Source of the DNA: a phage | Reading direction: 5' to 3' (one strand) | Sequence record: PZ452598.1 | DNA: 64,000 nt | Shown: positions 3,643 through 52,684 of the stretch, in pieces | How positions within the stretch are numbered: the first letter of the stretch is position 1 | How the letters are laid out: every line of letters starts with the position of its first letter | Translations under genes and position numbers: made by a program | Notes under the pieces: generated by a model | Told to the model about the DNA's origin: nothing | Seen by the model: the letters and a program-made list of their open reading frames with translations, nothing else | Databases searched by the model: none

Positions 3643-5325
3643 TTAAACCATTACAGTAAATCGACCAACTTTCTTCATTTGAAGATGCTGACCATATTCT
3701 TGCGGGTCATGGTCTTTATGCGAAATTATAAAAACGTTAGTGTTTTTCATTGAATTTATAATATTAGCTACACCTTTAATACCTTCGGCATCAAATGACC
3801 CATCAAACACTTCATCAAGAATTAATGTACTAATACTAACACCAGATACGATAGAAGCAATATCACGCCAAGTAAATAAAAGAGCAATATCGATTCGTGC
3901 CTTTTCACCTTCACTAAATGAAGCATAACTAAAATCTTCACGACCACGGGATTTAATTGTCTCATTAAATTCTTCATCTAATGTAAACACATAATCCGCT
4001 TCCATTATTTTAAGATAATGGTTAATCTGCTTATTAAATAATGGAATGTACTTTTTAATAATAGCACCTTTAATACCAGAATCTTTGAGCATATCAGTCA
4101 AAATTCCTCGGTGGTATTTTTCCATTACTAAATTAGTTTTTGTCTTAACAATTTTATCAAGTTCTTCTTGAAGCAGTGCTATTTCATCAGCATGGTCAAT
4201 AAACTCAGAAGATGCTTTTTCTATAGCCGCTTTAACTTTTTTAGCTTTATCTACTGCTGCGATCAGAGATTGCTTTTTATTGCGAATATCATTTGCCAAC
4301 GACTGCTGGGTTTTAATATTATCTCGGTATTCATCAACAAGAACTTTTAAATTATCACGATGTGTTGAAAGCTGTTCAAACGAATGTGTGCATTCAGAAA
4401 CTTTATCTTTAATTTTAGAAACAACTTTATCACCGGAACTCAATTGTGACAAACAGGTTGGACATAATCCACCTTCGTGATACATATTAATGACTTTATT
4501 ATACGAGTCAATTTTTGATTTAATTAAAAATGCTTCTTGACCGATTTTATTAAATGCATCAGTCGGGTCTTCGTCCAAAACAATATTAACTAATCTTTCG
4601 TTAGCTTCTTCTATTTCCGATTTTAGCGTTCTAGCTTCTTTTGCCAAATCATCATACATATTTTGTAGACGAGTAAGGTTGTCACCCGTTAATTTTTTCT
4701 GGCGTTCAACATTATCATTATATATTTTAATTTGTTGGATAATACTATCTTTTTTAACATCAAGCACTTGGTTCTGCGAATTTAATTCACGTATTAGTGC
4801 TTTATTAAGCTTATCCATTTCAGCTAATGTTCCTACCTCAAGCAGGTCTTCCACAAGCTTTCTTCGCGCAGGGGTCGACAAACCCATGAAAGGGGTATAC
4901 CCTGCTGTACCAAGGACAACAATCTGCTTGAAACTGGCATATGACATTCCGATAAGCTGTTCAAATTCTGCTTGGAAATCTTTACTGCTGGCAGATTCAT
5001 TAAGACGTGTACCGTTAACGGTGATTTCGAAAACGTTTGGTTTTTGTCCTCTTTTGATATAGTACTTTTTCTCATCATATTCCATCCACAGTTCAACTAA
5101 AAGTTCTTTCTTATTTGTGCTGTTTATTAATTGACCTTTCTTTACATCGCGAAATGGCTTACCAAAAAGCCCAAATGTGATGGCTTCTAGCATAGTAGAC
5201 TTACCACCGCCATTTCGTCCAGTAATAAGAGTTTTTTGAACCTTATCTAATTGAATGTCAATCCCATTTTGACCAACTGACATTATATTTTTATATTTTA
5301 CTCTATTAAGTTTAAAATTCTTCAC
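3643..5325 (-). CDS. 46: recombination endonuclease subunit gp46 (560 aa; SbcC/Rad50-like ATPase)
   Basis: N-terminal Walker A GRNGGGKST, long central coiled coil with CPTC zinc hook-like motif, C-terminal LILDEVFD Walker B/signature region. Confidence 0.9.
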   Translation of the reverse strand: MKNFKLNRVKYKNIMSVGQNGIDIQLDKVQKTLITGRNGGGKSTMLEAITFGLFGKPFRDVKKGQLINSTNKKELLVELWMEYDEKKYYIKRGQKPNVFEITVNGTRLNESASSKDFQAEFEQLIGMSYASFKQIVVLGTAGYTPFMGLSTPARRKLVEDLLEVGTLAEMDKLNKALIRELNSQNQVLDVKKDSIIQQIKIYNDNVERQKKLTGDNLTRLQNMYDDLAKEARTLKSEIEEANERLVNIVLDEDPTDAFNKIGQEAFLIKSKIDSYNKVINMYHEGGLCPTCLSQLSSGDKVVSKIKDKVSECTHSFEQLSTHRDNLKVLVDEYRDNIKTQQSLANDIRNKKQSLIAAVDKAKKVKAAIEKASSEFIDHADEIALLQEELDKIVKTKTNLVMEKYHRGILTDMLKDSGIKGAIIKKYIPLFNKQINHYLKIMEADYVFTLDEEFNETIKSRGREDFSYASFSEGEKARIDIALLFTWRDIASIVSGVSISTLILDEVFDGSFDAEGIKGVANIINSMKNTNVFIISHKDHDPQEYGQHLQMKKVGRFTVMV

Positions 5326-9984: not shown

Positions 9985-10498
9985 CTACAACACTTTTCTT
10001 TTCAGCCCCCGGTGTTCTATAGGTTGATTCTTCGTAATGCGTCATTTTATCATAGATGTCTTGAATAAAAGTTTCATCTACTAACGCAACCATATCGTCG
10101 TCACGGCTGTCATAGACATTGTGAACGAAGTAACTATATTTCTTTGCAACTTCCTTACGTTCTTTTTTAATACGTTGGACGAATGCATTAAAACAAGCTT
10201 GAGTTATATACGCATGTGGGTTTTTATATTTCGTTTCATCAAAATTGTGAAGCCCCTTAATAGAAGCTTCTATACCATCTGCAATCATTTCTTGTTTCCA
10301 AGACTGGGTGTATCCTGAAAAGTTGAAACGTTTAGATAAGCCTTCTGCAATAAGCATAATGGCTAATCCGATAGTATCATTCTGACGAACTACTTTATTT
10401 GGGTCTTTATTATTTGCTAATTCTGTTTTCCAATCAATAATAGCTTGTAAAAGCTCTTTATTGTTTACGTAATTATATTTAGGCTTAGTTTCTGACAT
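9941..10498 (-). CDS. 55: late-promoter sigma factor gp55 (185 aa from [17 protein letters not shown])
   Basis: sequence matches recalled T4 gp55; ORF track start two codons upstream. Confidence 0.9.
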
Positions 10499-15155: not shown

Positions 15156-16188
15156 CAATGTGTTCAGTAGAGTTCGCTACTTCTCTACCCGTTTATATGA
15201 AACAATGTAATTTGGATAATTGTCATCTAAACACAAATCTTTAATACGACTTGGGTGGAGTTTTAAATCTTTAGCAGCATCCACAAATGATTTATAGATA
15301 TTGTCATTTATTTTAACATATTCTGGGACGGGATGAATTGTTATTTTTATATCTATAACATTTGGATGATTACTAACCTGTTCTTCAGAGCATTTAAGAA
15401 ATTTTGCAGCTGATTTAAAACTTCTAAATTTATTTCCGGATTTTAAAGCTATAGAAACAGTCTTTTTAGCCGTTCTACTACCAATATTATTTTTAACATG
15501 AGCTTCACTTCTACTATTATTTTTATAATGCTCAATCAATTTCTCTCGTATCTTATCTTTATGTTTTAAAGATAAGATTTTACCTTTATGGGCATTACTA
15601 AGTTTTTGCTTATGTTCTTCTGAATCCGGATATTTGTTAAATTTATATCCACCTATAGATTTATTAAGAATAAATTCGTTATTAAAATATTTCCTAATAA
15701 GCATTTCTTCATGTTTAAGGGCCGATTCATAAGAATCAAAAACTTGAAGAATTATCCACTTAGCTTTATAATCTTTAAGCTTTTCTTTAACAAGCTTAGA
15801 TGACGAATTGTATTCTTTCCAATTTGTATCTTTACCATATATAGTTTTGAATTTTTTAAAACCTATATAAAAAGACTTATCAGGAAATCTTACCATATAG
15901 GTAAATGCTACAGAATTGGCAATTTTTAAGCTTTTTCTTAATTTCCATTTCATCGTTTCACCTCGTATTCATATTTATACGAGGATAAACAGCTGCATGT
16001 CACCATGCAGTTCAGACTATATCTTCAACTCTTAGAGTTGTCTGCCGTTTCGGGTCGCTTGACCCTACTCCCTTACATTCATCAGGGATAGTCGTTGGGC
16101 ATTTACAGCTACTGCTGATTTAGCAACGGATTGTCTCAGTGAGAGTTTCCCGTTTTAGGCAGATTTTACATGAGCTTGACTTACGTTA
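15156..16188 (-). mobile_element. group I self-splicing intron (1033 nt) in nrdD carrying an endonuclease ORF
   Basis: exon 1 frame hits stop 2 codons past inferred 5' splice site; P1 pairing exon UAUGAGU with intron GCUCAUG; structured GC-rich core 15960-16188; boundaries inferred from pairing plus frame/length, uncertain by a few nt. Confidence 0.75.
15177..15953 (-). CDS. I-TevII: intron-encoded GIY-YIG-type homing endonuclease (258 aa; I-TevII-like)
   Basis: ORF inside intron 3' of catalytic core; N-terminal FTYMVRFPDKSFYIG motif; basic C-terminal DNA-binding region. Confidence 0.7.
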   Translation of the reverse strand: MKWKLRKSLKIANSVAFTYMVRFPDKSFYIGFKKFKTIYGKDTNWKEYNSSSKLVKEKLKDYKAKWIILQVFDSYESALKHEEMLIRKYFNNEFILNKSIGGYKFNKYPDSEEHKQKLSNAHKGKILSLKHKDKIREKLIEHYKNNSRSEAHVKNNIGSRTAKKTVSIALKSGNKFRSFKSAAKFLKCSEEQVSNHPNVIDIKITIHPVPEYVKINDNIYKSFVDAAKDLKLHPSRIKDLCLDDNYPNYIVSYKRVEK

Positions 16189-21283: not shown

Positions 21284-21316
21284 CATTATACCACATCCTT
21301 GTGGCAAAGTAAACTA
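21284..21316 (-). promoter_or_regulatory. early promoter GTTTAC-N18-TATAAT between paralogs C and B
   Basis: plus 21309-21314 gtaaac, 21285-21290 attata; spacer contains CCACAAGGATGTGG. Confidence 0.45.
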
Positions 21317-24227: not shown

Positions 24228-24253
24228 TTTGTGTTCCTCCGTAGTTGATAGTT

Positions 24254-24287
24254 GTATAGTACCACAGCTCAAACGGAAAGTAAACCG
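24254..24287 (-). promoter_or_regulatory. early promoter GTTTAC-N18-TACTAT with conserved leader CAACTATCAACTAC
   Basis: plus 24280-24285 gtaaac, 24256-24261 atagta. Confidence 0.5.
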
Positions 24288-28245: not shown

Positions 28246-28270
28246 GTTATTCTCCTCTTAACTGATAGAA

Positions 28271-28305
28271 AAATTATACCACAGTCAAGAGGAAAAGTAA
28301 ACAGT
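28271..28305 (-). promoter_or_regulatory. early promoter GTTTAC-N18-TATAAT upstream of regB
   Basis: plus 28298-28303 gtaaac, 28273-28278 attata with TGTGG extended -10. Confidence 0.55.
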
Positions 28306-29762: not shown

Positions 29763-30409
29763 TGCATTCCGATTACGAAAAACTGTGGACGAGTAATACC
29801 ACCAATGCAACATTTACTATTACAGCAGTAGTGTACGGTGTCAATATGGACACTATAAATCTTATCCATATCAGGAGATTTGACAGGCTCATCAATTATA
29901 TACAAAATTCGCGAAAGCTTTAAACCTCTGAACTTGCTTCCTTTATTACCAATAAAACTGCGTACAGAATCAGTAAATAAACGAAAACGTATATCATCAT
30001 TAGAATAACGCGAAAATTCCTTTTTGATGTTATTTGCAGAAATTTTAGCATAAGCTGAAGTATTAGAAAGAACAATAACTGTTCCGCCATCATACAACCA
30101 ATTAGCAGCAAAGTTAGTCACAGCAATTGATTTACCGGATTGACGTCCACCATCTAGTCGAAGTGTACAATACTGTTTAAGTAAGTCTTCAAATGGCGGG
30201 ATATATTCGTTTTTACAAATTTCTTCTACTCTAGCATCAGAATGGTGTGTAAAAGCATTCATCAGGGATAGATAAGGACCAGTTAAAAATGTTCTCATTT
30301 CTTCTCTATAAGTTTGGGCCATTCCGTGGCGCATGAATTGTCCATTTCTGTATTTACCCATTACCGCGCTTGGGCTCGACCTTATTACAGGTTGGCGGGA
30401 ATCCCTCAT
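29759..30409 (-). CDS. P-loop NTPase-like protein (up to 216 aa)
   Basis: Walker A GGRQSGKS and Walker B-like ILYIIDEP. Confidence 0.5.
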   Translation of the reverse strand: MRDSRQPVIRSSPSAVMGKYRNGQFMRHGMAQTYREEMRTFLTGPYLSLMNAFTHHSDARVEEICKNEYIPPFEDLLKQYCTLRLDGGRQSGKSIAVTNFAANWLYDGGTVIVLSNTSAYAKISANNIKKEFSRYSNDDIRFRLFTDSVRSFIGNKGSKFRGLKLSRILYIIDEPVKSPDMDKIYSVHIDTVHYCCNSKCCIGGITRPQFFVIGMQ

Positions 30410-30435
30410 ATAATCATGAGGTCCAGGTTGTTCCC

Positions 30436-30852
30436 TTATGCATAAATCGCCTTACCGTAGTATTTGTACCAAGTAGGACGTTGTGCAATTTTTTCATCTA
30501 AACGAGCTTGTGATATAGCAATAGAAGCTTCATGGGGAATATAATCACCACGGAATTCCTGAGGAATATCACTAATATCCTGGACTGTAGTATCCTTGAT
30601 ATTAAAACCACGTTTTAAACATTCAGCTATAAGCTCAATTTGACGTTTACGTAAGAACTCGAGCTTATCGTAAAAGAATGTAACATGACCTGCGCCAAGG
30701 ATAAAAGTAGGACTGATTTTAAAATCACGAACACGTTTACCGTTAGCAACATGCTTACGAACTGCACCAAAAACACGCGGCAATTCACGATATTCAGCCA
30801 TTAAGTGTTGGTCAGCCAATTCAGATACTAAAGTAAGGTTGATACGAGTCAT
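30436..30852 (-). CDS. denV: endonuclease V, pyrimidine-dimer DNA glycosylase (138 aa)
   Basis: sequence [34 protein letters not shown]... matches recalled T4 endo V. Confidence 0.9.
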
Positions 30853-30880
30853 TTTAGTGTTCTCCTGTAGTTGATAGGTC

Positions 30881-30912
30881 TATAGTATCATACCTACAGG
30901 AGATGTAAACTG
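30881..30912 (-). promoter_or_regulatory. early promoter GTTTAC-N17-TACTAT upstream of denV
   Basis: plus 30905-30910 gtaaac, 30883-30888 atagta; flanked by inverted repeat CCTGTAG/CTACAGG. Confidence 0.5.
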
Positions 30913-31215
30913 TTATTTATCTTTAATTGCTTTAGCTGCTTCGATAGCCGCTTGCTGAAGGTCATCCATAGACATGCCGAACTTAGAAGCAAAGTTATCA
31001 ATTTTCTTTTCGACGGCATTCAAAGGCTTGGCCTGTTTACCTTCATTAGCGCCAGGAAGAGCGAGAATACGCTCTCTGTCAATATAAAGGCTTACAAGTT
31101 TCTTACGGTCTTTATCGGGCAAATCATGAAATGAATGGGCCTTTTTATTTACAGCGGCTTCTAATTTACCTGCGCCCACTCGCGCTTCGGCAATAAATTC
31201 TTGATATGTTTTCAT
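30913..31215 (-). CDS. ipII: internal protein II (100 aa) with capsid-targeting N-terminus
   Basis: N-terminal MKTYQEFIAEA shared with ipIII; basic/Ala-rich. Confidence 0.8.
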   Translation of the reverse strand: MKTYQEFIAEARVGAGKLEAAVNKKAHSFHDLPDKDRKKLVSLYIDRERILALPGANEGKQAKPLNAVEKKIDNFASKFGMSMDDLQQAAIEAAKAIKDK

Positions 31216-31252
31216 ATGTTTCCTTTAAATGTAAATATTTTTATTATTCTAT

Positions 31253-31297
31253 CCTAGAATTGTGATAATATATTCACAATTCTAGGAGTTGTAAACT
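31253..31297 (-). promoter_or_regulatory. early promoter upstream of ipII with perfect 12-bp inverted repeat CTAGAATTGTGA-N8-TCACAATTCTAG around the -10
   Basis: plus 31290-31295 gtaaac; palindrome 31253-31284. Confidence 0.5.
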
Positions 31298-31330
31298 GCT
31301 TTTATTTAAGCGTCCCAAGTATAAGCTTTA

Positions 31331-31912
31331 TTAAGAATTACCACGGGCTGCATTAGCAACGGCGTAAGCGTACTGAATATTAGCGTCTTTAAACTTACCT
31401 TTAGAGGTATCTATTTCTGCCTTAAAGCCGCCTTTAGTCATAACATCGGCAAATTCTTTACGGAAAGCCATTGCATCAAGACCTTTCCATGATGATTTAT
31501 GCTTGGCAAATTCAAGACCTGCGAAGTTGACAGCTTTAGCCAATTTATTATCAATGACCCATTTACCGGCTTTAGGCACAAACTTCGGGCCTTTCTGTTT
31601 AGAGAACAGTTTTAAATTCCAGCGGCGAAGGTCTGCATCAGCTTTAACAAATTCTGAGTCTAAGTTACTAGCAACAACATCTTCAATATGAGCAAATTTA
31701 AGTCCGTCAACTTCAATATTTAAATCGGTACGCCAGCGAAGTCCTTCCCAAGCGAAGGCTTTAAAGTCGGAAGCCTTTGTAGCTAAGTACCGTTCAATAG
31801 GAGCTGTTTTAGGGTCAAAGCCGTTTCCTGATCGGTAGGTCCACTCATCTTTGTTAATGCCTTTGGCCTTTACTACAGAAGCTTCGGCAATAAATTCTTG
31901 ATATGTTTTCAT
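31331..31912 (-). CDS. ipIII: internal protein III (193 aa) with capsid-targeting N-terminus
   Basis: N-terminal MKTYQEFIAEA; size 193 aa. Confidence 0.8.
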   Translation of the reverse strand: MKTYQEFIAEASVVKAKGINKDEWTYRSGNGFDPKTAPIERYLATKASDFKAFAWEGLRWRTDLNIEVDGLKFAHIEDVVASNLDSEFVKADADLRRWNLKLFSKQKGPKFVPKAGKWVIDNKLAKAVNFAGLEFAKHKSSWKGLDAMAFRKEFADVMTKGGFKAEIDTSKGKFKDANIQYAYAVANAARGNS

Positions 31913-31954
31913 ATGTTTCCTTTAAATATTTTAATTAGTAATTGTCTATTCAAG

Positions 31955-31995
31955 TAATTGTGAATATACTATCACAATTCCAAGAGAAAGTAAAC
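31955..31995 (-). promoter_or_regulatory. early promoter upstream of ipIII with 8-bp inverted repeat AATTGTGA-N8-TCACAATT around the -10
   Basis: plus 31990-31995 gtaaac; palindrome 31956-31979. Confidence 0.5.
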
Positions 31996-31999
31996 AGCT

Positions 32000-32968
<969 letters not shown>

Positions 32969-32987
<19 letters not shown>

Positions 32988-33160
32988 TCAGTGATAAAGT
33001 TATTTAAATTTTGAGCATATTTCTTTTCATCAAAAATCTTTTGCTGTCTGCGTAACCGCCATGGCATTTCAATGAACATACGCCATATTCCTGATAATAC
33101 TGCTGCTGTAAAAATATTAACAAGTATAGTTAAAAGAATCCAATCGCCTATTCTGTCCAT
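32969..33160 (-). CDS. small membrane protein (63 aa)
   Basis: N-terminal TM helix WILLTILVNIFTAAVLSGIW then basic tail. Confidence 0.45.
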
Positions 33161-33456
33161 TGGATTTTTATAAAAAAGTAAAATACGAATGATGATATAG
33201 GAAGACTAATGATATACCACAGAAGAACCTTCTTATCTGTGAACCAATCAGCATTCGTTAACTTAGCGCGACCATTTTGAATACACACGAATTTATCATC
33301 TGTTACAGTAAATGGCTTAGCTGCTTGATATCCCATTCTAAACTCCCTAATTAATCGTTTCTTTGTATCTTCGGAACAACCATTCCAATCAACTCTATCA
33401 ACTGGAATGCCATCATCCCCATCATCTAAATCATACCAGCGAGTTTTTAAAATCAT
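33148..33456 (-). CDS. small protein with C-terminal TM helix (102 aa)
   Basis: C-terminal LLWYIISLPISSFVFYFFI. Confidence 0.45.
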   Translation of the reverse strand: MILKTRWYDLDDGDDGIPVDRVDWNGCSEDTKKRLIREFRMGYQAAKPFTVTDDKFVCIQNGRAKLTNADWFTDKKVLLWYIISLPISSFVFYFFIKIQWTE

Positions 33457-33815
33457 TTAATTTTCCTGCAATCAATCACAAACTCTTTCATTGATTCATT
33501 TTCAATATAAGACATGTAGCTATTATATTCTTTTAATTGTATTTTGTAATCCTTTTTTCTTTGCCAATTTATTTTAAAATTATCATAATGAAAATATAAA
33601 ATGATACCAAAGAATGAAAACAATGAAATAATTTTAGTATAACAAAGCTCGCTCCAAACTTCTATTATATCTACTGTACCACTGATTTTTAAAATAAAAC
33701 AGTCAATTAATAGTCCAATAAGACTACCTGTAAGAGCTGCAGCCAACGCCACAGCAAAAATTAAAAATGACTCAGAAAACGAATATTTGACTTTATTTAG
33801 CTTTGGCTTTTGCAT
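33453..33815 (-). CDS. two-TM membrane protein (120 aa)
   Basis: two hydrophobic helices then basic tail; paralog-like to next ORF. Confidence 0.5.
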   Translation of the reverse strand: MQKPKLNKVKYSFSESFLIFAVALAAALTGSLIGLLIDCFILKISGTVDIIEVWSELCYTKIISLFSFFGIILYFHYDNFKINWQRKKDYKIQLKEYNSYMSYIENESMKEFVIDCRKIK

Positions 33816-34210
33816 CGTGATTCCTTAACAAATTTCATAATTTCATTAAATTCATACTCAGCAAGTTTAAGCTGGTGTTCCTTTTTAATCTTTTTGCACT
33901 GGGCTTTCCAATCACGTACGCGTTTACGATAATGTCTTCCTTGATACCAGTATCCTATCCAATTTACGGGTACTAATAAAAATGGAACTACCAATGGAAG
34001 AGTTAGCATTAACATAATTATTACGCCAGAATCAATATCAGTCATAACATCTAAAACACCTCCAATAATCAATAGAATTACAAATGATATAGCTATCACA
34101 GGACCTATTAATACATCAGTAGAAATTATCTGGCGCTTTAATTCATACTTCAAAGGTTTACTTGGAAGGTATAGTGATGGCTTTGACATATTCTCTACAT
34201 TCCTTAACAA
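33797..34210 (-). CDS. two-TM membrane protein (137 aa)
   Basis: two hydrophobic helices then basic tail WYQGRHYRKRVRDWKAQCKK. Confidence 0.5.
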   Translation of the reverse strand: MLRNVENMSKPSLYLPSKPLKYELKRQIISTDVLIGPVIAISFVILLIIGGVLDVMTDIDSGVIIMLMLTLPLVVPFLLVPVNWIGYWYQGRHYRKRVRDWKAQCKKIKKEHQLKLAEYEFNEIMKFVKESRCKSQS

Positions 34211-34766
34211 ATTTTTCTAGTAATAAATCACTTTCAAAATTAGGATTTTCCACTAATTTATCAAAAAGATCATCAACAATATTCAAGATATTTCTTTTAC
34301 TAAGAATACGTTTATTTTCATGCTTCGTTTCAGAATCAACTATAAGAGTAAAGAAATATTTCTTTCCCTGAAATTTTACCGTAGTATCAATATAAAATAA
34401 ATTTGACTTTTGTAAATTACGTTTAAACCATGCGTCACTTAAACTATAAACACCGAGATAATCAAAATCGTCGTTTAAATAACAAACTGACCATTCAGGA
34501 GAAATGAAATCAGTAAATTCAACATCAAAATCACATGTCAATGAATGAATTGATTCAATACTGTTAATAAGTATTCCAGGACGTATTAAAGACTTTTTAC
34601 CTCTGGAAAATCTTCCAGAAAGACTTTCATCAGTTTCATATGAAGAACCCCAATAATAATTACGTCCTTTTGCCATATGTTTAAGAGCATTTAGTAATTG
34701 GTCTGGAACATCAACGTGTCTTTGGAACTCTTCAAACATTGAATTGAAATCACTTTGCATTTTCAT
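34158..34766 (-). CDS. hypothetical protein (202 aa)
   Basis: ORF. Confidence 0.5.
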   Translation of the reverse strand: MKMQSDFNSMFEEFQRHVDVPDQLLNALKHMAKGRNYYWGSSYETDESLSGRFSRGKKSLIRPGILINSIESIHSLTCDFDVEFTDFISPEWSVCYLNDDFDYLGVYSLSDAWFKRNLQKSNLFYIDTTVKFQGKKYFFTLIVDSETKHENKRILSKRNILNIVDDLFDKLVENPNFESDLLLEKFVKECREYVKAITIPSK

Positions 34767-34787
34767 TCCTATTTACTCCAAGTAATA

Positions 34788-34802
34788 GGGGGCCGAAGCC
34801 CC
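34788..34802 (-). other. C(UUCG)G RNA hairpin
   Basis: plus gggggccgaagcccc. Confidence 0.45.
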
Positions 34803-34808
34803 TTATCA

Positions 34809-35402
34809 TTATTTCAGAGAATTAATATATTCCTGAACATCGGCAGAGGTAGTTTCAACCCCAGAAATATTACCATTAAAGGTTTCAACTCGAGCAAGAG
34901 TATCTTCAATATCAACCTTAGTCAGTGCTGCAATTTCAACTACATCATCAGCAGTACTAATTCCAAGGGCATTTGCTGCACGAGTTTCACGGATATATTC
35001 CAATTTAACTGCAAGTTCTTGGCGAGCATCATCTAACTCAACTACTTTCTTGGCGATTTCAATTCGCATTTCAGCATAACCATCAGCTTTAGTAGTCAGC
35101 TGTTCAGCTGTTCGACGATATAGCAAGCCGAGTTTAGCATGCATTGTTACATCTTGACCTTCGGAAAGAAGCTTGCGAATTTCACGCTCTTTTGATTCGG
35201 CCTGTTTATTCTTTTCAACAATAAGTTCACGAATACGTTTTTCTTCATTAATAGATTTAACAGAAGCAGTTTTTAGGTCTTTAATTTTATCAAGTAGTTT
35301 TGCTGCTGCAGCAGTATACTGTTCTTCAACAGATAGATTTTTAGCCATTGCAGAACCAAGTTTAGTGCGAATAAACTCAACAATTTTCTTCAGTGTGTTC
35401 AT
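34809..35402 (-). CDS. coiled-coil protein (197 aa), possibly PspA/IM30-like
   Basis: predominantly helical heptad-rich sequence with charged residues; family assignment tentative. Confidence 0.45.
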
Positions 35403-35464
35403 AGTATTTCCTTAGGTTGGTATAATTAGATAATATAATATCACGTTTCTAATAGATTGTAAAC

Positions 35465-35800
35465 TTATTCTTCGTCTAGCTCGTCGATAAAGGCGTTGAT
35501 GGCCTCGATAATGGCATCATTGATAGCCAATAAAATAAAATCATCGTCAGTACCTTTAGAAGATTCTAAAGCATTGATATATGCTTGGTTGACGAGTTCC
35601 CAAGCCTTTTTAAAATAAGGAGCTTCATCATCAGGACAAATATCCCGCACGCCTTCAAAGATACGTTTGGCATAATCTAACACCCATTGTACAGGCATGT
35701 TTTGAGAACGTTCGTTAAACTCTTTAAAGTCCTTAGATTCAAAAAGCTCTTCAGGATAATTATTTCTATTACAAAAAGCTTTACTAAAGTTACGTTTCAT
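35465..35800 (-). CDS. hypothetical acidic protein (111 aa)
   Basis: ORF downstream of early promoter at 35821-35860. Confidence 0.45.
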   Translation of the reverse strand: MKRNFSKAFCNRNNYPEELFESKDFKEFNERSQNMPVQWVLDYAKRIFEGVRDICPDDEAPYFKKAWELVNQAYINALESSKGTDDDFILLAINDAIIEAINAFIDELDEE

Positions 35801-35856
35801 AATGTTTTCCTCATTTGTATAGGCTCATAATATCTCAATCATGAGCCTATGTAAAC

Positions 35857-36120
35857 TTATTTCATATTATTGAAATATTCTTCTGCGATTTCGTCGTTAT
35901 CATGGTAAACTTTAGAAGACAGTTTAACATAACTTTCAGCAGTGAACATGTTAATCACAACCTTTACAGTATACCACTGACCGTCTTCATTACCCATTAC
36001 TGCGTAAGTTTCAAACATCGGATGGTCAGGACCGATAACTTTAATATCATTCACCGTACGACCGAAATCTTCTGAAACACATTTCATAAAGAAGTTGAAA
36101 AGTTCACCGTAATTATCCAT
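35857..36120 (-). CDS. hypothetical protein (87 aa from MDNYGELF)
   Basis: ORF; GGAGA SD 7 nt upstream of this Met; track extension covers promoter. Confidence 0.45.
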   Translation of the reverse strand: MDNYGELFNFFMKCVSEDFGRTVNDIKVIGPDHPMFETYAVMGNEDGQWYTVKVVINMFTAESYVKLSSKVYHDNDEIAEEYFNNMK

Positions 36121-36161
36121 TTTATTCTCCAAGTTATTTTCTGTATCAGTAGTTGATAGTT

Positions 36162-36195
36162 GTATAGTACCATGGAAGAACAAGGATGTAAACAG
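36162..36195 (-). promoter_or_regulatory. early promoter GTTTAC-N18-TACTAT with conserved leader
   Basis: plus 36188-36193 gtaaac, 36164-36169 atagta. Confidence 0.5.
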
Positions 36196-36310
36196 TTTTG
36201 TGAAAAAATTTTTAAAAAGTTTTAGGGAATTCTAGGGCGGAGAGGGGCAATTAAAAGATAGGATAATATATTATAAAGGGTATAAACTAAATGATGCCTA
36301 GAGAGGTCTG

Positions 36311-36344
36311 GAAAGGCTTAGATACCAAAAAGCCCCAACCTTTC
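36311..36344 (-). terminator. intrinsic terminator at 3' end of tRNA/stable-RNA transcription unit
   Basis: minus-strand hairpin AGCCCCGACC-GAAA-GGUUGGGGCU followed by UUUUUGG. Confidence 0.6.
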
Positions 36345-36389
36345 GGTCGGGGCTAAGCCTTGCGGCAACCTTGTCGGGGTTCCACCTGC

Positions 36390-36548
36390 CAAGGCAAGTG
36401 TTTGTACGAAACGCCGGGATTCGAACCCGGTTATTAAGTAGTTGACGCTACTCAATATTTTTAAAAGGCCATATCTCAACCATATCCGAACGTTCCGTCA
36501 AAAACGCTACTCGGCTTACGGCAAAGATATTTCCTCGAATCGATAATT
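36390..36548 (-). ncRNA. candidate small stable RNA with tRNA-like 3' domain (approximate bounds)
   Basis: T-arm-like CCGGGUUCGAAUCCCGG on minus strand at 36412-36430; no ORF; position downstream of tRNA-Arg as for T4 stable RNAs C/D. Confidence 0.4.
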
Positions 36549-36668
36549 TGGTGCGCCGTTTCTGCTGTGATGTAAGAGGGCATCAATAAACGCAAAGATT
36601 ATTAACGCAATTCCTTACTCAGGGAACATCAGTCCGACGACTTACCGGTAGCGACCCGGTTTCTCATT
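36549..36668 (-). ncRNA. candidate small stable RNA ending ...CGGCGCACCA (approximate 5' bound)
   Basis: abuts tRNA-Arg; 3' end resembles CCA-terminated acceptor; no ORF. Confidence 0.4.
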
Positions 36669-36743
36669 TGGTATCCCGCCCTGGGATCGAACCAGGACCG
36701 CAAACTTAGAAGGATCGTATGCTATCCATTACACCAGCGGGAC
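36669..36743 (-). tRNA. tRNA-Arg (anticodon UCU), CCA encoded
   Basis: manual fold: acceptor GTCCCGC/GCGGGAT, T-arm CCTGG-TTCGATC-CCAGG, anticodon loop CTTCTAA. Confidence 0.8.
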
Positions 36744-36748
36744 GTAAT

Positions 36749-37414
36749 TTAAAATTTCATTTTTCGACCTTTAAACCATCCTTCTGGAATTGGGTCAGTT
36801 TTCTTAATACGTTTAGAAACTTTTTCATCTAATGAATGAATCCACATCATACCGAATTGGGAATTCTTTTCACCTTTCTGGTGATTATTTTTGGCGTGAG
36901 ATTCTTTCATTTTATTAATAGTTTCAGGAGTATGATGCTTATTTAGAAATCTGCTATTATTTAAAAATTTTTCCCTGTATTCAGGAGTTGACCACAAACG
37001 TTTAAATACATTTGAACCAATTTTACGATATTTTTCTTGAAGTAAAATATCATTTTCAAAACGTGACTTAAACGATTTAGCTCCTTTTAAGCTAGCATCT
37101 TTCTTCTGGTTTAGCATTCCAGGAATATTTACATGATCCCATCCACCTTCACCGCCAAGTTTTAAATTATACACATCTGGTCTATTTAAAAACTCTTCTG
37201 TGACAATATTTTTCTCGGCTTCAAGCATAGATTCTTTATCGTCAAAATACTCTAATATTTCTTTAGAAAAATTTTCTATACCATATTTATCTTGGGCTCT
37301 TTTTAATAATTTACCAGAACCCATATATCCATCATCTAAATTTTCGGTAGAATGCACACCAATATAAATTTTATTATTAATTTTATTTGTTATTTTATAA
37401 GTGTAATAGAACAT
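36749..37414 (-). CDS. segB: GIY-YIG homing endonuclease (221 aa; segB-like) inside tRNA cluster
   Basis: N-terminal YYTYKITNKINNKIYIGVH GIY-YIG motif; located between tRNA-Arg and tRNA-Ile. Confidence 0.7.
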   Translation of the reverse strand: MFYYTYKITNKINNKIYIGVHSTENLDDGYMGSGKLLKRAQDKYGIENFSKEILEYFDDKESMLEAEKNIVTEEFLNRPDVYNLKLGGEGGWDHVNIPGMLNQKKDASLKGAKSFKSRFENDILLQEKYRKIGSNVFKRLWSTPEYREKFLNNSRFLNKHHTPETINKMKESHAKNNHQKGEKNSQFGMMWIHSLDEKVSKRIKKTDPIPEGWFKGRKMKF

Positions 37415-37455
37415 AAATATCTCCTATTTCTAAGAGTATTTATGTTCTCAAAATA

Positions 37456-37529
37456 TGACCCAGACCAGATTTGAACTGGTAACCTTTCCCTTATGAGGGG
37501 ACTGCTGCTAACCATTGAGCTACAGGGCC
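37456..37529 (-). tRNA. tRNA-Ile (anticodon CAU type), no CCA encoded
   Basis: manual fold; anticodon loop CTCATAA; 1 nt from tRNA-Thr (dimeric precursor arrangement). Confidence 0.7.
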
Positions 37530-37530
37530 T

Positions 37531-37606
37531 TGGTGCTGATTGACGGAATCGAACCGCCGACATCCTCATTACAAGTGAGGTGCTCTACCTACTGAGCTAA
37601 ATCAGC
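37531..37606 (-). tRNA. tRNA-Thr (anticodon UGU), CCA encoded
   Basis: manual fold: acceptor GCTGATT, D-arm GCTC-AGTAGGTA-GAGC, anticodon loop CTTGTAA, T-arm GGCGG-TTCGATT-CCGTC. Confidence 0.85.
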
Positions 37607-37613
37607 AAAATTA

Positions 37614-37700
37614 CGGAGGCGATAGGATTTGAACCTATGAGTCGCCGGAGCGACTGCCGGTTTTCAAGACCGGTGCATTAAACCACTCTGCCACGCCTCC
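37614..37700 (-). tRNA. tRNA-Ser (anticodon UGA), long variable arm
   Basis: manual fold: acceptor GGAGGCG, anticodon stem-loop CCGGT-CTTGAAA-ACCGG, extended variable arm, T-arm ATAGG-TTCAAAT-CCTAT. Confidence 0.85.
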
Positions 37701-37702
37701 AG

Positions 37703-37776
37703 TCTCCATACAAGGATTTGAACCTTGGACCTCCTGATCCCAAATCAGGCGCTCTACCAAACTGAGCTACACGGAG
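37703..37776 (-). tRNA. tRNA-Pro (anticodon UGG)
   Basis: manual fold: anticodon stem-loop CCTGA-TTTGGGA-TCAGG; T-arm CAAGG-TTCAAAT-CCTTG. Confidence 0.85.
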
Positions 37777-37786
37777 TAAATTAAAT

Positions 37787-37860
<74 letters not shown>

Positions 37861-37865
37861 AAATT

Positions 37866-37952
37866 TGGTGCGAGAAGTGGGACTCGAACCCACAAGGAAA
37901 TCATTCCGCAGCATTTTAAGTGCTGTGCCTTTACCAATTTGACCATTCTCGC
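37866..37952 (-). tRNA. tRNA-Leu (anticodon UAA), long variable arm, CCA encoded
   Basis: manual fold: acceptor GCGAGAA/TTCTCGC, anticodon loop CTTAAAA, T-arm GTGGG-TTCGAGT-CCCAC. Confidence 0.85.
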
Positions 37953-37953
37953 G

Positions 37954-38026
37954 CTGGGAATAAAGGACTCGAACCTTTGCATCTAGCAGTCAAAGTGCTA
38001 TGCCTTACCAACTTGGCTAATTCCCA
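37954..38026 (-). tRNA. tRNA-Gln (anticodon UUG)
   Basis: manual fold: acceptor TGGGAAT/ATTCCCA, anticodon stem-loop TAGCA-CTTTGAC-TGCTA, T-arm AAGGT-TCGAGTC-CTTTA. Confidence 0.85.
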
Positions 38027-38123
38027 ATTATTAACAAAGGCTCTCTAACAAGAACCCTTGATGATAGAGGGTATTAATCAGTGCGGTATGAGTTAATAAT
38101 AACAAATAATTCTTAAAGCATAT

Positions 38124-38417
38124 TTACCATTTATGATGATACGTATTTACGATACATTCAAGACCCAAAGGATTCTTGAAAATATCATATTCAAGAGGAC
38201 CTTTTTCTGTTTCAATAAAGAAATCAAAATTTACTGTATTAAATTTACGGTCTTCCTTTACTAATTTAACTTGAGAAGATGAACGATCAATGTAAACCTT
38301 TTCAACTTCAAAACACGTTAAAATGCCATAATCATCAATCAAGGCTTTAGCTGCTTCTTGATCATATTTATATCCATTTTCAACGGATGATACTTTCGCA
38401 TAAAGAATCATCATCAA
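38124..38417 (-). CDS. hypothetical protein (97 aa)
   Basis: ORF. Confidence 0.45.
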   Translation of the reverse strand: MMMILYAKVSSVENGYKYDQEAAKALIDDYGILTCFEVEKVYIDRSSSQVKLVKEDRKFNTVNFDFFIETEKGPLEYDIFKNPLGLECIVNTYHHKW

Positions 38418-38824
38418 CCTCTATCAACAATAGCATGAGTATGGGCATTTACGATTTGCCACCAGTCGAAACGATTGGAACCATAATCTGGTTTATTTTC
38501 ATTTTCTTTAATGATATCACGCAGTTTATCTTCTGTTTCAGCATACGCAATTAAATCATCATATCCACCACAAGGATAATAATTATCACCTGCGAATAAA
38601 AGAAAATTTACCTTAGATGGATTTACGTAATAATGGTCTTTAGGATATTTAGTTCCTCTCCAATCAGTTACTTCAACATAACGGTAAGAAAATCCATTTT
38701 TACTTTCAATCCAACTCCACGCTTCAAAAGGAGTATTAAAAACTTTATCAGGTATTAAATTACCTTCAAAATGAGAAGGATTTGCATAATCCCCGGCATA
38801 AACATAATATTCGTTAATACTCAT
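38414..38824 (-). CDS. hypothetical protein (136 aa)
   Basis: ORF, Tyr/Trp-rich. Confidence 0.45.
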   Translation of the reverse strand: MSINEYYVYAGDYANPSHFEGNLIPDKVFNTPFEAWSWIESKNGFSYRYVEVTDWRGTKYPKDHYYVNPSKVNFLLFAGDNYYPCGGYDDLIAYAETEDKLRDIIKENENKPDYGSNRFDWWQIVNAHTHAIVDRG

Positions 38825-39010
38825 TTATTCACCTTTAGAAATTTTATCCATAACGATAGCAATTAAACCAATTAAAAATGCTACTACAAGTGAAAACACA
38901 TTTTCTGCTGTAGTTAATAATCCGCATATAAATCCAACAAACATTGAAAAACTAAAAGCAGAAGCAGAAATTGCAATAGCAACATTTCGAATTAATTCAC
39001 AGCGTTTCAT
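38825..39010 (-). CDS. small membrane protein (61 aa)
   Basis: two hydrophobic helices. Confidence 0.45.
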   Translation of the reverse strand: MKRCELIRNVAIAISASAFSFSMFVGFICGLLTTAENVFSLVVAFLIGLIAIVMDKISKGE

Positions 39011-39028
39011 TTTATTCTCCTCAGTAGT

Positions 39029-39066
39029 TGATAGGGTAATAGTATCACAGCTAAAACCCTATGTAA
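39029..39066 (-). promoter_or_regulatory. early promoter GTTTAC-N17/18-TACTAT with conserved leader
   Basis: plus tgtaaac at 39059-39065 and atagta upstream. Confidence 0.5.
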
Positions 39067-39086
39067 ACAACTTTGTGAAATATTTA

Positions 39087-39374
39087 TTACAAAAGATTTT
39101 TAGCAATAATCTTGAGATGTGCCGCAGAAATGTGTTTAGCTTTAAACAACGCAGTTTCTTCAGCAGGAGAGATAACGATTGTAGCACCATCCTTTTTAGC
39201 AGACCACCCATCACCTAGGTAAACAGTACCTTTGATTTCTTCGCCATCAACCAGACTAATCATTGGTTTACCTTCTCGTCCTTTATTTGCTTTAATAACT
39301 TCAGAAGTAAGAGTAGCTTCGGTAATGGTAGAAACCGGGGTAGTTGTAGAAGTAAATTCTTTAAATGTTTTCAT
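39087..39374 (-). CDS. ipI: internal protein I (95 aa) with capsid-targeting N-terminus
   Basis: N-terminal MKTFKEFTST... related to MKTYQEFIAEA of ipII/ipIII; size 95 aa. Confidence 0.75.
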   Translation of the reverse strand: MKTFKEFTSTTTPVSTITEATLTSEVIKANKGREGKPMISLVDGEEIKGTVYLGDGWSAKKDGATIVISPAEETALFKAKHISAAHLKIIAKNLL

Positions 39375-39395
39375 TTTTATTTTCCTAATTAATTT

Positions 39396-39440
39396 TGATG
39401 AGGTAATAGTATCACTACCTCATCAGTATGTAAACAACTT
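39396..39440 (-). promoter_or_regulatory. early promoter upstream of ipI with perfect 10-bp inverted repeat TGATGAGGTA-N10-TACCTCATCA enclosing the -10
   Basis: arms 39396-39405 and 39416-39425; -35 gtaaac at 39430-39435. Confidence 0.5.
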
Positions 39441-39447
39441 TGTGAAA

Positions 39448-40144
<697 letters not shown>

Positions 40145-52655: not shown

Positions 52656-52684
52656 AAGGGAGCCCATGGGCTCCCTTTTTCTTT
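52656..52684 (+). terminator. intrinsic terminator after gene 8
   Basis: GGGAGCCC-AUG-GGCUCCC hairpin followed by UUUUUCUUU. Confidence 0.65.

Follow-up and report, generated by a model that had tools for sequence, protein, structure and literature searches.

The early promoters of ipI, ipII, ipIII and denV in phage T4 each carried an inverted repeat around the -10 hexamer, and the same pattern was found at about 40% of T4-type early promoters. The initial annotation had named these four promoters; the pattern held, but its limit to four did not. The dyad is a hallmark of early-promoter cassettes and not a four-gene oddity. The hairpins are probably the stem-loop components of T4-type early-promoter cassettes (PeSL-like), with folding confined to RNA that was initiated upstream.

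Inverted repeats at the ipII, ipIII, ipI and denV promoters

The window (the whole 64,000-nt stretch of DNA analysed) was phage T4, with 100% identity to OZ209023 over the compared interval 30400-32600, and was collinear with AF158101 but for one 4.8-kb deletion. The genes denV (30436-30852), ipII (30913-31215), ipIII (31331-31912), e (32000-32494) and ipI (39087-39374) were all on the minus strand. An early promoter of the form TTTACW-N16/17-TAnnnT preceded each of denV, ipII, ipIII and ipI on the sense strand. Each of the four promoters lay in the gap between two same-strand genes, after the stop codon of the upstream gene and ahead of the Shine-Dalgarno and ATG of the next. The inverted repeats described earlier were present at all four, with longer arms than had been claimed at ipII and denV, and the -10 hexamer did lie between the arms, the 5' arm being upstream of it in every case. 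Transcription from sigma-70 promoters starts about 7 nt after the -10. By this usual spacing the start falls between the arms, so each promoter's own transcript would lack the 5' arm and could not form the hairpin. Rfam had no family at the hairpins.

The ipII promoter hairpin (31252..31287, minus strand) had perfect 14-bp arms and an 8-nt loop holding the -10. The repeat, TCCTAGAATTGTGA-N8-TCACAATTCTAGGA, occupied 31252-31265 and 31274-31287, with the 5' arm at 31287..31274 and the 3' arm at 31265..31252 on the sense strand. Arms of 12 bp had been placed at 31253-31284; a repeat was there, but that interval was not itself symmetric, the coordinates being one base off (31254-31265/31274-31285) and the length short by comparison with the 14 bp found. 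The predicted RNA fold was -20.4 kcal/mol (z -6.1). The ipII early promoter (31267..31295, minus strand) comprised a -35 TTTACA at 31295..31290 and a -10 TATATT at 31272..31267, and the ipII ATG was at 31215..31213.

The ipIII promoter hairpin (31956..31979, minus strand), AATTGTGA-N8-TCACAATT, was exactly as first described. The promoter had its -10 TAGTAT at 31971..31966 and its -35 at 31994..31989, and the ATG was at 31912..31910. The fold was weak (-10.1 kcal/mol, z -1.9), and 8 of 200 shuffles folded as well. Among orthologues the 8-bp core was retained, with 77 of 80 cells paired.

The ipI promoter hairpin (39396..39425, minus strand), TGATGAGGTA-N10-TACCTCATCA, likewise agreed exactly with its earlier description, and in the sense RNA G-U pairs lengthened the stem inward to 13 pairs. 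The -10 TACTAT was at 39411..39406, the -35 at 39434..39429 and the ATG at 39374..39372; the fold was -17.4 kcal/mol (z -4.9). The hairpin-to-ATG distance was 20 nt for ipI, 35 nt for ipII and 36 nt for ipIII, and the Shine-Dalgarno sequences of the three genes were predicted to be 0.44-0.88 unpaired.

Internal-protein promoters in relatives had unrelated arms in the same geometry, for example 12 bp in L026, 9 bp in L017 and 10 bp in L117. Orthologous internal-protein promoters in L009, L085, L088, L100, L114 and L123 had no hairpin, so the hairpin is dispensable at these promoters. Many relatives had no promoter whatever ahead of the first internal-protein gene. In L113, L118, L121-L135 and others (at about 10440-10470) this gene and the stop codon of gene 57B overlapped (TAAATG), and no promoter cassette was present. 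Because many T4-like phages lack a cassette at the 57B overlap, the ipI promoter cassette is a facultative insert.

The denV promoter hairpin (30861..30903, minus strand) was TCTCCTGTAG-N23-CTACAGGAGA with 10-bp arms; the shorter repeat reported at 30864-30900 was exact and extended outward to these limits. The 3' arm (30870..30861) included the Shine-Dalgarno AGGAG, whose GGAG lies 7 nt before the ATG (30852..30850). The -10 TACTAT was at 30887..30882 and the -35 at 30909..30904. The hairpin fold was -18.0 kcal/mol (z -4.3). The Shine-Dalgarno was predicted to be 0.46 unpaired in the primary transcript and 0.00 unpaired in the read-through RNA, a value reached by 0 of 100 shuffles of the upstream part.

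Among denV orthologues the arm sequence and even the arm position varied, and the Shine-Dalgarno remained paired; the arm pairs were TCTCCTGTAG/CTACAGGAGA, TTCCTCCAAG/CTTGGAGGAA, CTCCGTTTG/CAAACGGAG and GATGTCTTCC/GGAGGACATC. Most T4-like relatives had an anti-Shine-Dalgarno element upstream of the expected denV start, in the spacer or overlapping the -10. The mean predicted unpaired value of the Shine-Dalgarno in these orthologues was 0.59 for primary transcripts and 0.11 for read-through RNA, against 0.36 when the upstream part was shuffled. No consensus structure came out of RNAalifold on MAFFT-aligned denV promoters, since the position of the arms differs from lineage to lineage.

Cognate pairing across early promoters

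Perfect inverted repeats with arms of at least 10 bp and loops of 3-25 nt were counted over the whole window and in dinucleotide shuffles. The window contained seven with arms of at least 10 bp (3.05 +/- 1.7 in shuffles) and three with arms of at least 12 bp (0.23 in shuffles). A single 10-bp repeat in a 64-kb window is not rare. Four of the seven were centred on early-promoter -10 boxes, namely those of ipII, ipI, denV and e.7.

Pairing was also measured between the -35/spacer segment of each promoter and the 45 nt downstream of its own -10 (cognate) or of the others' (non-cognate), using 37 early promoters taken from the whole T4 genome and 169 distinct cassettes from T4-like phages. Cognate duplexes of the 37 T4 promoters averaged -12.2 kcal/mol versus -7.75 kcal/mol for non-cognate duplexes, and 0 of 20,000 permutations reached the cognate mean. 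For the 169 cassettes the values were -11.8 and -7.8 kcal/mol (z -21.8), with duplexes of -15 kcal/mol or stronger in 33% of cognate and 2.8% of non-cognate pairings. The composition controls gave -8.3 kcal/mol (reversed partner) and -7.3 kcal/mol (shuffled arm). MotA-box middle promoters had no cognate enrichment (z -0.9), and that of TATAAATA late promoters was slight (z -2.3), in line with the hairpins known at e, soc, 49, I-TevI and segB.

Coincidence in AT-rich DNA would account for about three perfect 10-bp repeats per 64-kb shuffle and might be argued for ipIII taken alone, whose fold some shuffles equalled. For the class as a whole it was refuted by the position of four of the seven long repeats on early -10 boxes, by the z of the 169 cassettes and by the middle-promoter, late-promoter and composition controls, and its probability is close to nil.

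Strong stems were found at about 20 of the 37 T4 early promoters and in 73 of the 169 cassettes. Among these 73, the 3' arm covered the Shine-Dalgarno zone in 39 and lay elsewhere in 34. The loop-length distribution peaked at 10 nt, and the 3' arm began 0-2 nt after the -10 in 26 of the 73. Half of the strong stems had loops of 20-56 nt with the Shine-Dalgarno as the 3' arm.

Both placements of the 3' arm recurred elsewhere in T4. The regB early-promoter hairpin (28249..28297, minus strand; -22.5 kcal/mol) belonged to the denV class: its spacer pairs with the regB Shine-Dalgarno, for which the predicted unpaired value fell from 0.93 in the primary transcript to 0.00 in read-through RNA. The geometry that occludes the Shine-Dalgarno was present at regB, alc, alt.-3, 30.8, e.8, nrdC.8, modB, motB.2 and imm.1. 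The e.7 early-promoter hairpin (35818..35851, minus strand; ATAGGCTCAT/ATGAGCCTAT, perfect 10-bp arms at 35819-35850) was of the ip class; at one position of an arm AF158101 has an N and the window reads C. The trna.4 early-promoter hairpin (39031..39062, minus strand), also of the ip class, had the arms ATAGGGT/ACCCTAT around the -10, and its orthologous variant in L090 and L136 was ATGGGGT/ACCTCAT. A third arrangement, a small hairpin wholly within the -35/-10 spacer (CCACAAGGATGTGG), was seen at the nrdC.4, rIIA.1 and ndd.6 early promoters (window 21285-21313; AF158101 2457 and 167085).

The initial annotation had argued from arms that differ between promoters in a recurring architecture that a single protein-binding consensus was unlikely and that the repeats act as RNA structure in read-through transcripts. 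This is still the best reading. The predicted RNA folds of ipII, ipI and denV had the z values given above, ipIII being the weak case. The compensatory changes that it had proposed to look for in related phages were found, pairing being kept through compensatory and G-U changes in both orthologues and paralogues. The paralogous mobD.2 and dmd promoters had compensating differences (AGTTGACAAGATT/AATCTTGTCAACT versus CTGACAAGACT/AGTCTTGTCGG). In the ipIII family one pair changed from U-A (T4) to U-G (F26, RB32, AR1, fPS-2) to C-G (F2), and the ipIII orthologue in phage SF had a G-U pair. Formal covariation statistics for the ipIII family were not above shuffles because there is too little variation among close relatives. 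In the ipI family L142 had a G-U pair, and L136 and L090 had a recombinant arm with a compensating A-to-G change.

Strand bias was assessed by scoring G-U and A-C mismatches symmetrically. The ratio of G-U to A-C was 28:19 in cognate stems versus 175:280 in non-cognate ones (binomial p = 0.004). Sense folds were more stable than antisense folds (-12.2 versus -10.4 kcal/mol, p = 0.016). Structure in the sense-strand RNA is favoured by these results, though only moderately and not decisively for the ipII stem with its perfect Watson-Crick pairs.

The perfect Watson-Crick arms of ipII would suit a function at the DNA level equally well, as would those of ipI and e.7. The dyad would then be a cruciform or a protein-binding element that modulates the promoter itself, for example the target of an early-promoter shut-off factor, or of a CRP or LacI-like regulator at TGTGA-N8-TCACA / AATTGTGA..TCACAATT. 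The dyads had the -10 at their centre and were a specific feature of early promoters, middle promoters not being enriched; TGTGA-N8-TCACA occurred at ipII and ipIII only (2 matches versus 0.02 expected); and how early promoters are shut off is described as an unsettled question in PMC3014915. Against this, the arms were unrelated between promoters, which fits no sequence-specific protein, and the sense strand preferred G-U over A-C. Orthologues broke the TGTGA/TCACA cores and kept the RNA pairing (SF TCATA, MN04 CTACA, F26/RB32 U-G), and a cruciform is implausible with the 20-56 nt loops of half of the strong stems. The placement around the -10 calls for no DNA-level cause, because in a compact cassette only the spacer and the segment after the -10 can vary freely. 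A DNA-level function is therefore distinctly improbable, and RNA structure is the preferred reading.

The TGTGA-N8-TCACA matches were at 31261-31278 and 31959-31976, inside the lac-operator-like half-sites AATTGTGA..TCACAATT. The CRP consensus is TGTGA-N6-TCACA. A CRP/LacI-type operator was rejected at these sites: the spacing is N8, the half-site cores vary in orthologues, and the ipI and denV arms are unrelated.

Relation to PeSL cassettes, terminators and recombination

The hairpin-promoter architecture is real and is already known as PeSL or PeSL-like, a link that the initial annotation had missed. Cassettes termed PeSL ("promoter-early stem-loop") were described in T4-type phages by Arbiol et al. 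2010 (PMC2839356) and Comeau et al. 2014 (PMC4122927). According to these two papers, the stem-loop most commonly falls within the -35/-10 interval or overlaps the -10, the PST/T4 pair has TTTACW-N17-TAYWAT versions, and PeSL-like AT-rich stem-loops at T-even internal-protein loci are attributed to Repoila et al. 1994. The promoters in the window resembled the T-even version, with TTTACW-N17-TAYWAT promoters and AT-rich stems of variable size. Like PeSLs, they combined an intergenic early promoter with a stem-loop, lay between an upstream stop codon and the Shine-Dalgarno/ATG that follows, and were repeated through plastic early regions in association with indels and cassette exchange. The four sites had an intergenic sigma-70-type promoter and a stem-loop overlapping it (weak at ipIII), and such cassettes recurred across early regions and relatives and were linked to insertion, deletion and exchange. 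The ipI, ipII and ipIII elements are PeSL-like cassettes of the kind already described. In the portions of the PeSL papers available, the stem-loop is treated as a terminator or attenuator and a recombination site, with translation and Shine-Dalgarno occlusion unmentioned. Unlike in those accounts, about half of the strong stems here used the Shine-Dalgarno as the 3' arm, and the T4 stems examined had no T-run.

The function proposed for PeSLs would make the stem-loops primarily terminators or attenuators that insulate each cassette from upstream transcription. In a reporter, an RB49 PeSL stem-loop lowered lacZ expression to an extent similar to that of the rrnB T1 terminator (PMC2839356). The ip-class hairpins directly followed the upstream stop codon, a position shared with intrinsic terminators, and jumbo-phage denV loci had a true terminator-like hairpin, with a T-run, overlapping the -35. 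The G+C-rich stem and T-run of intrinsic terminators were missing at the T4 sites, however: all four hairpins and the other T4 early-promoter hairpins in 30400-39600 lacked a T-run and had AT-rich stems. T4 prereplicative transcription extends through downstream genes (PMC2988021), and the denV class requires read-through RNA, since it makes sense only if such RNA exists. On balance a primary role in termination is unlikely, and a structure formed in read-through RNA is still preferred. Canonical intrinsic terminators were rejected for the four hairpins, which had no T-run, A-rich tails and AT-rich stems and were not called by the terminator scan; on the sense strand that scan found no canonical terminator in the e-to-denV interval or in the 57B-to-ipI interval. 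In the jumbo phages (L031, L035, L036, L041; at about 2420-2470) the sequence upstream of denV was GGGTTGAC-TTCG-GTCAGCCC-TTTTT, a terminator-like hairpin that included the -35 of a TTGAC-N18-TATAAT promoter and left the Shine-Dalgarno free.

Processing had also been suggested. RNase III requires about two turns (at least 20 bp) of double-stranded RNA. The stems of 8-14 bp are too short to be RNase III sites, and the ip hairpins had no GGAG for cleavage by RegB.

Several observations concerned cassette exchange. The 4.8-kb deletion in the window spanned nrdC.9 to mobD.5 of AF158101, with its junction at 24247-24267. At the junction was a 17-21 nt identity (CTGTGGTACTATACAAC, spanning the -10) common to the mobD.5 and nrdC.8 early-promoter cassettes, and the deletion created a hybrid promoter at 24256-24284. 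None of the records among 50,697 phage genomes spanned this junction. In L021 (2390-2503) an ipIII-type promoter with its hairpin was fused directly to denV, and in L033 (about 2030-2130) a cassette of the denV type, in which the denV start had decayed (ATACACGTATT), lay ahead of an internal-protein gene.

The repeats could accordingly belong mainly to the recombination of mobile promoter cassettes, or be its by-products; they would then mark or promote the shuffling of cassettes and not act in gene expression. The deletion junction within a -10 region common to two cassettes, the shuffled cassettes of L021 and L033, and the presence or absence of a promoter at the 57B/ipI junction among relatives would fit such an origin, as would PeSL-mediated exchange, which is documented (PMC2839356, PMC4122927). 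The crossover, however, used direct homology (CTGTGGTACTATACAAC) and not the inverted repeat, the compensatory and G-U changes indicate selection for pairing, and the conservation of Shine-Dalgarno pairing across very different denV promoters would be left unexplained. We regard recombination as a very doubtful main role.

Predicted roles in read-through RNA

If the hairpins act as RNA structures, their geometry may arise as follows. The polymerase fixes the -35 and -10 of a sigma-70 early promoter, and the freely varying segments would be selected for complementarity. The spacer (about -30 to -14) would pair with a stretch from about -6 downstream, sometimes reaching the Shine-Dalgarno. Both arms would be present only in read-through RNA from an upstream promoter, and the hairpin would form there alone. 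The repeats, their statistics and the covariation were observed directly; the folding of the RNA in vivo and its effect on translation and decay are inferred.

Two types of hairpin can be distinguished. One, at denV, regB, alc, nrdC.8, motB.2, modB and others, has the Shine-Dalgarno for its 3' arm, and a translational gate is the preferred reading of it. Read-through RNA of this denV type would be shut to ribosomes, and probably to RegB, and RNA from the gene's own promoter would be open. Expression would then come from the gene's own early promoter only, the inverse of the logic of gene e. Structure inhibits RegB (Durand et al.), and for the RegB resistance of the denV GGAG the same authors credit the 3' sequence and not structure. 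In the ip type a compact intercistronic hairpin right after the upstream stop would leave the Shine-Dalgarno open, so that the internal proteins could still be translated from long transcripts. The ip hairpin itself may attenuate transcription from upstream, protect the 3' end of the preceding cistron or insulate the ribosome-binding site.

The proteomic classes (PMC9697503 supplement) place DenV and RegB as early RNA/early protein and IPI, IPII and IPIII as early RNA/late protein. The early-protein class of DenV and RegB is consistent with a denV-type gate, and ip hairpins that spare the Shine-Dalgarno fit both the early RNA/late protein class and the need for these proteins in head assembly. 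The internal proteins apart, the proteomic classes do not separate the two hairpin classes, in that e.7, dmd, motB, 30.7 and cd.2, all of the ip class, are also early proteins.

T4 hairpins that sequester a ribosome-binding site and contain a promoter are reportedly credited to McPheeters et al. in 1986. They comprise those of e, soc, 49 and I-TevI, with segB implicated (review PMC3014915). In the gene e type the long upstream RNA buries the Shine-Dalgarno/AUG in a helix, and RNA from the inner promoter, which lacks the 5' arm, is translatable (PMC3014915). The analogy with lysozyme drawn in the initial annotation was apt for denV, where the Shine-Dalgarno is in the 3' arm and the promoter inside, but not for ipI, ipII and ipIII, whose Shine-Dalgarno was predicted to be open. 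The gene e type has its Shine-Dalgarno/start in the 3' arm, as denV does and ipI, ipII and ipIII do not. The geometry of the gene e type was the same at denV, regB and about ten other T4 early genes. The promoter differed: a gp55 late promoter (TATAAATA) gives late-only expression in the gene e type, whereas a sigma-70 early promoter is predicted to give early-only expression in the denV type. All four sites had sigma-70 early promoters and none had a gp55 late promoter. For the gene e type the long transcript is translationally blocked; for the denV type the difference is one of predicted accessibility only. The 2010 reviews give ribosome-binding-site-occluding hairpins only for e, soc, 49, I-TevI and segB, and their early-promoter alignments hold an unexplained extra consensus. 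What may be new is the gating of the Shine-Dalgarno at early promoters.

More tentatively, and with somewhat less than even confidence, we suggest that anti-Shine-Dalgarno elements in early promoters gate translation generally in T4-like phages, as a conserved device acting on roughly a third of early genes. Under such a gate only RNA from a gene's own promoter would be translatable and accessible to RegB (denV, regB, alc, modB, motB.2, nrdC.8 and others). Shut-off of the early promoters would silence the gated genes automatically, though longer transcripts still crossed them, and cassettes that spare the Shine-Dalgarno, such as those of the internal proteins, would escape and be made late. 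Early shut-off, which is incompletely understood, would gain an intrinsic RNA layer. Should the predicted action of the denV-type hairpins hold, a considerable number of T4 early genes would have translatability hard-wired to promoter choice. This would help to explain the end of early protein synthesis despite continuing transcription, suggest why RegB might fail to cut certain Shine-Dalgarno GGAG sites, and explain why mobile promoter cassettes carry a stem-loop. For annotators of T4-like genomes, the embedded stem-loop offers a simple structural signature of early promoters.

Perfect inverted repeats were also observed away from the early promoters. At the segB start (37408-37448, minus strand) a perfect 12-bp repeat had the ATG in its 3' arm, the Shine-Dalgarno GGAG in a 17-nt loop and the late-promoter-like CATAAATA in its 5' arm; it resembled the arrangement of gene e, and 'implicated' is the term used for segB in the review. 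The remaining repeats were at 15550-15578 (12 bp, 5-nt loop), 4000-4046 (11 bp, 25-nt loop) and 52656-52677 (AAGGGAGCC-CATG-GGCTCCCTT).
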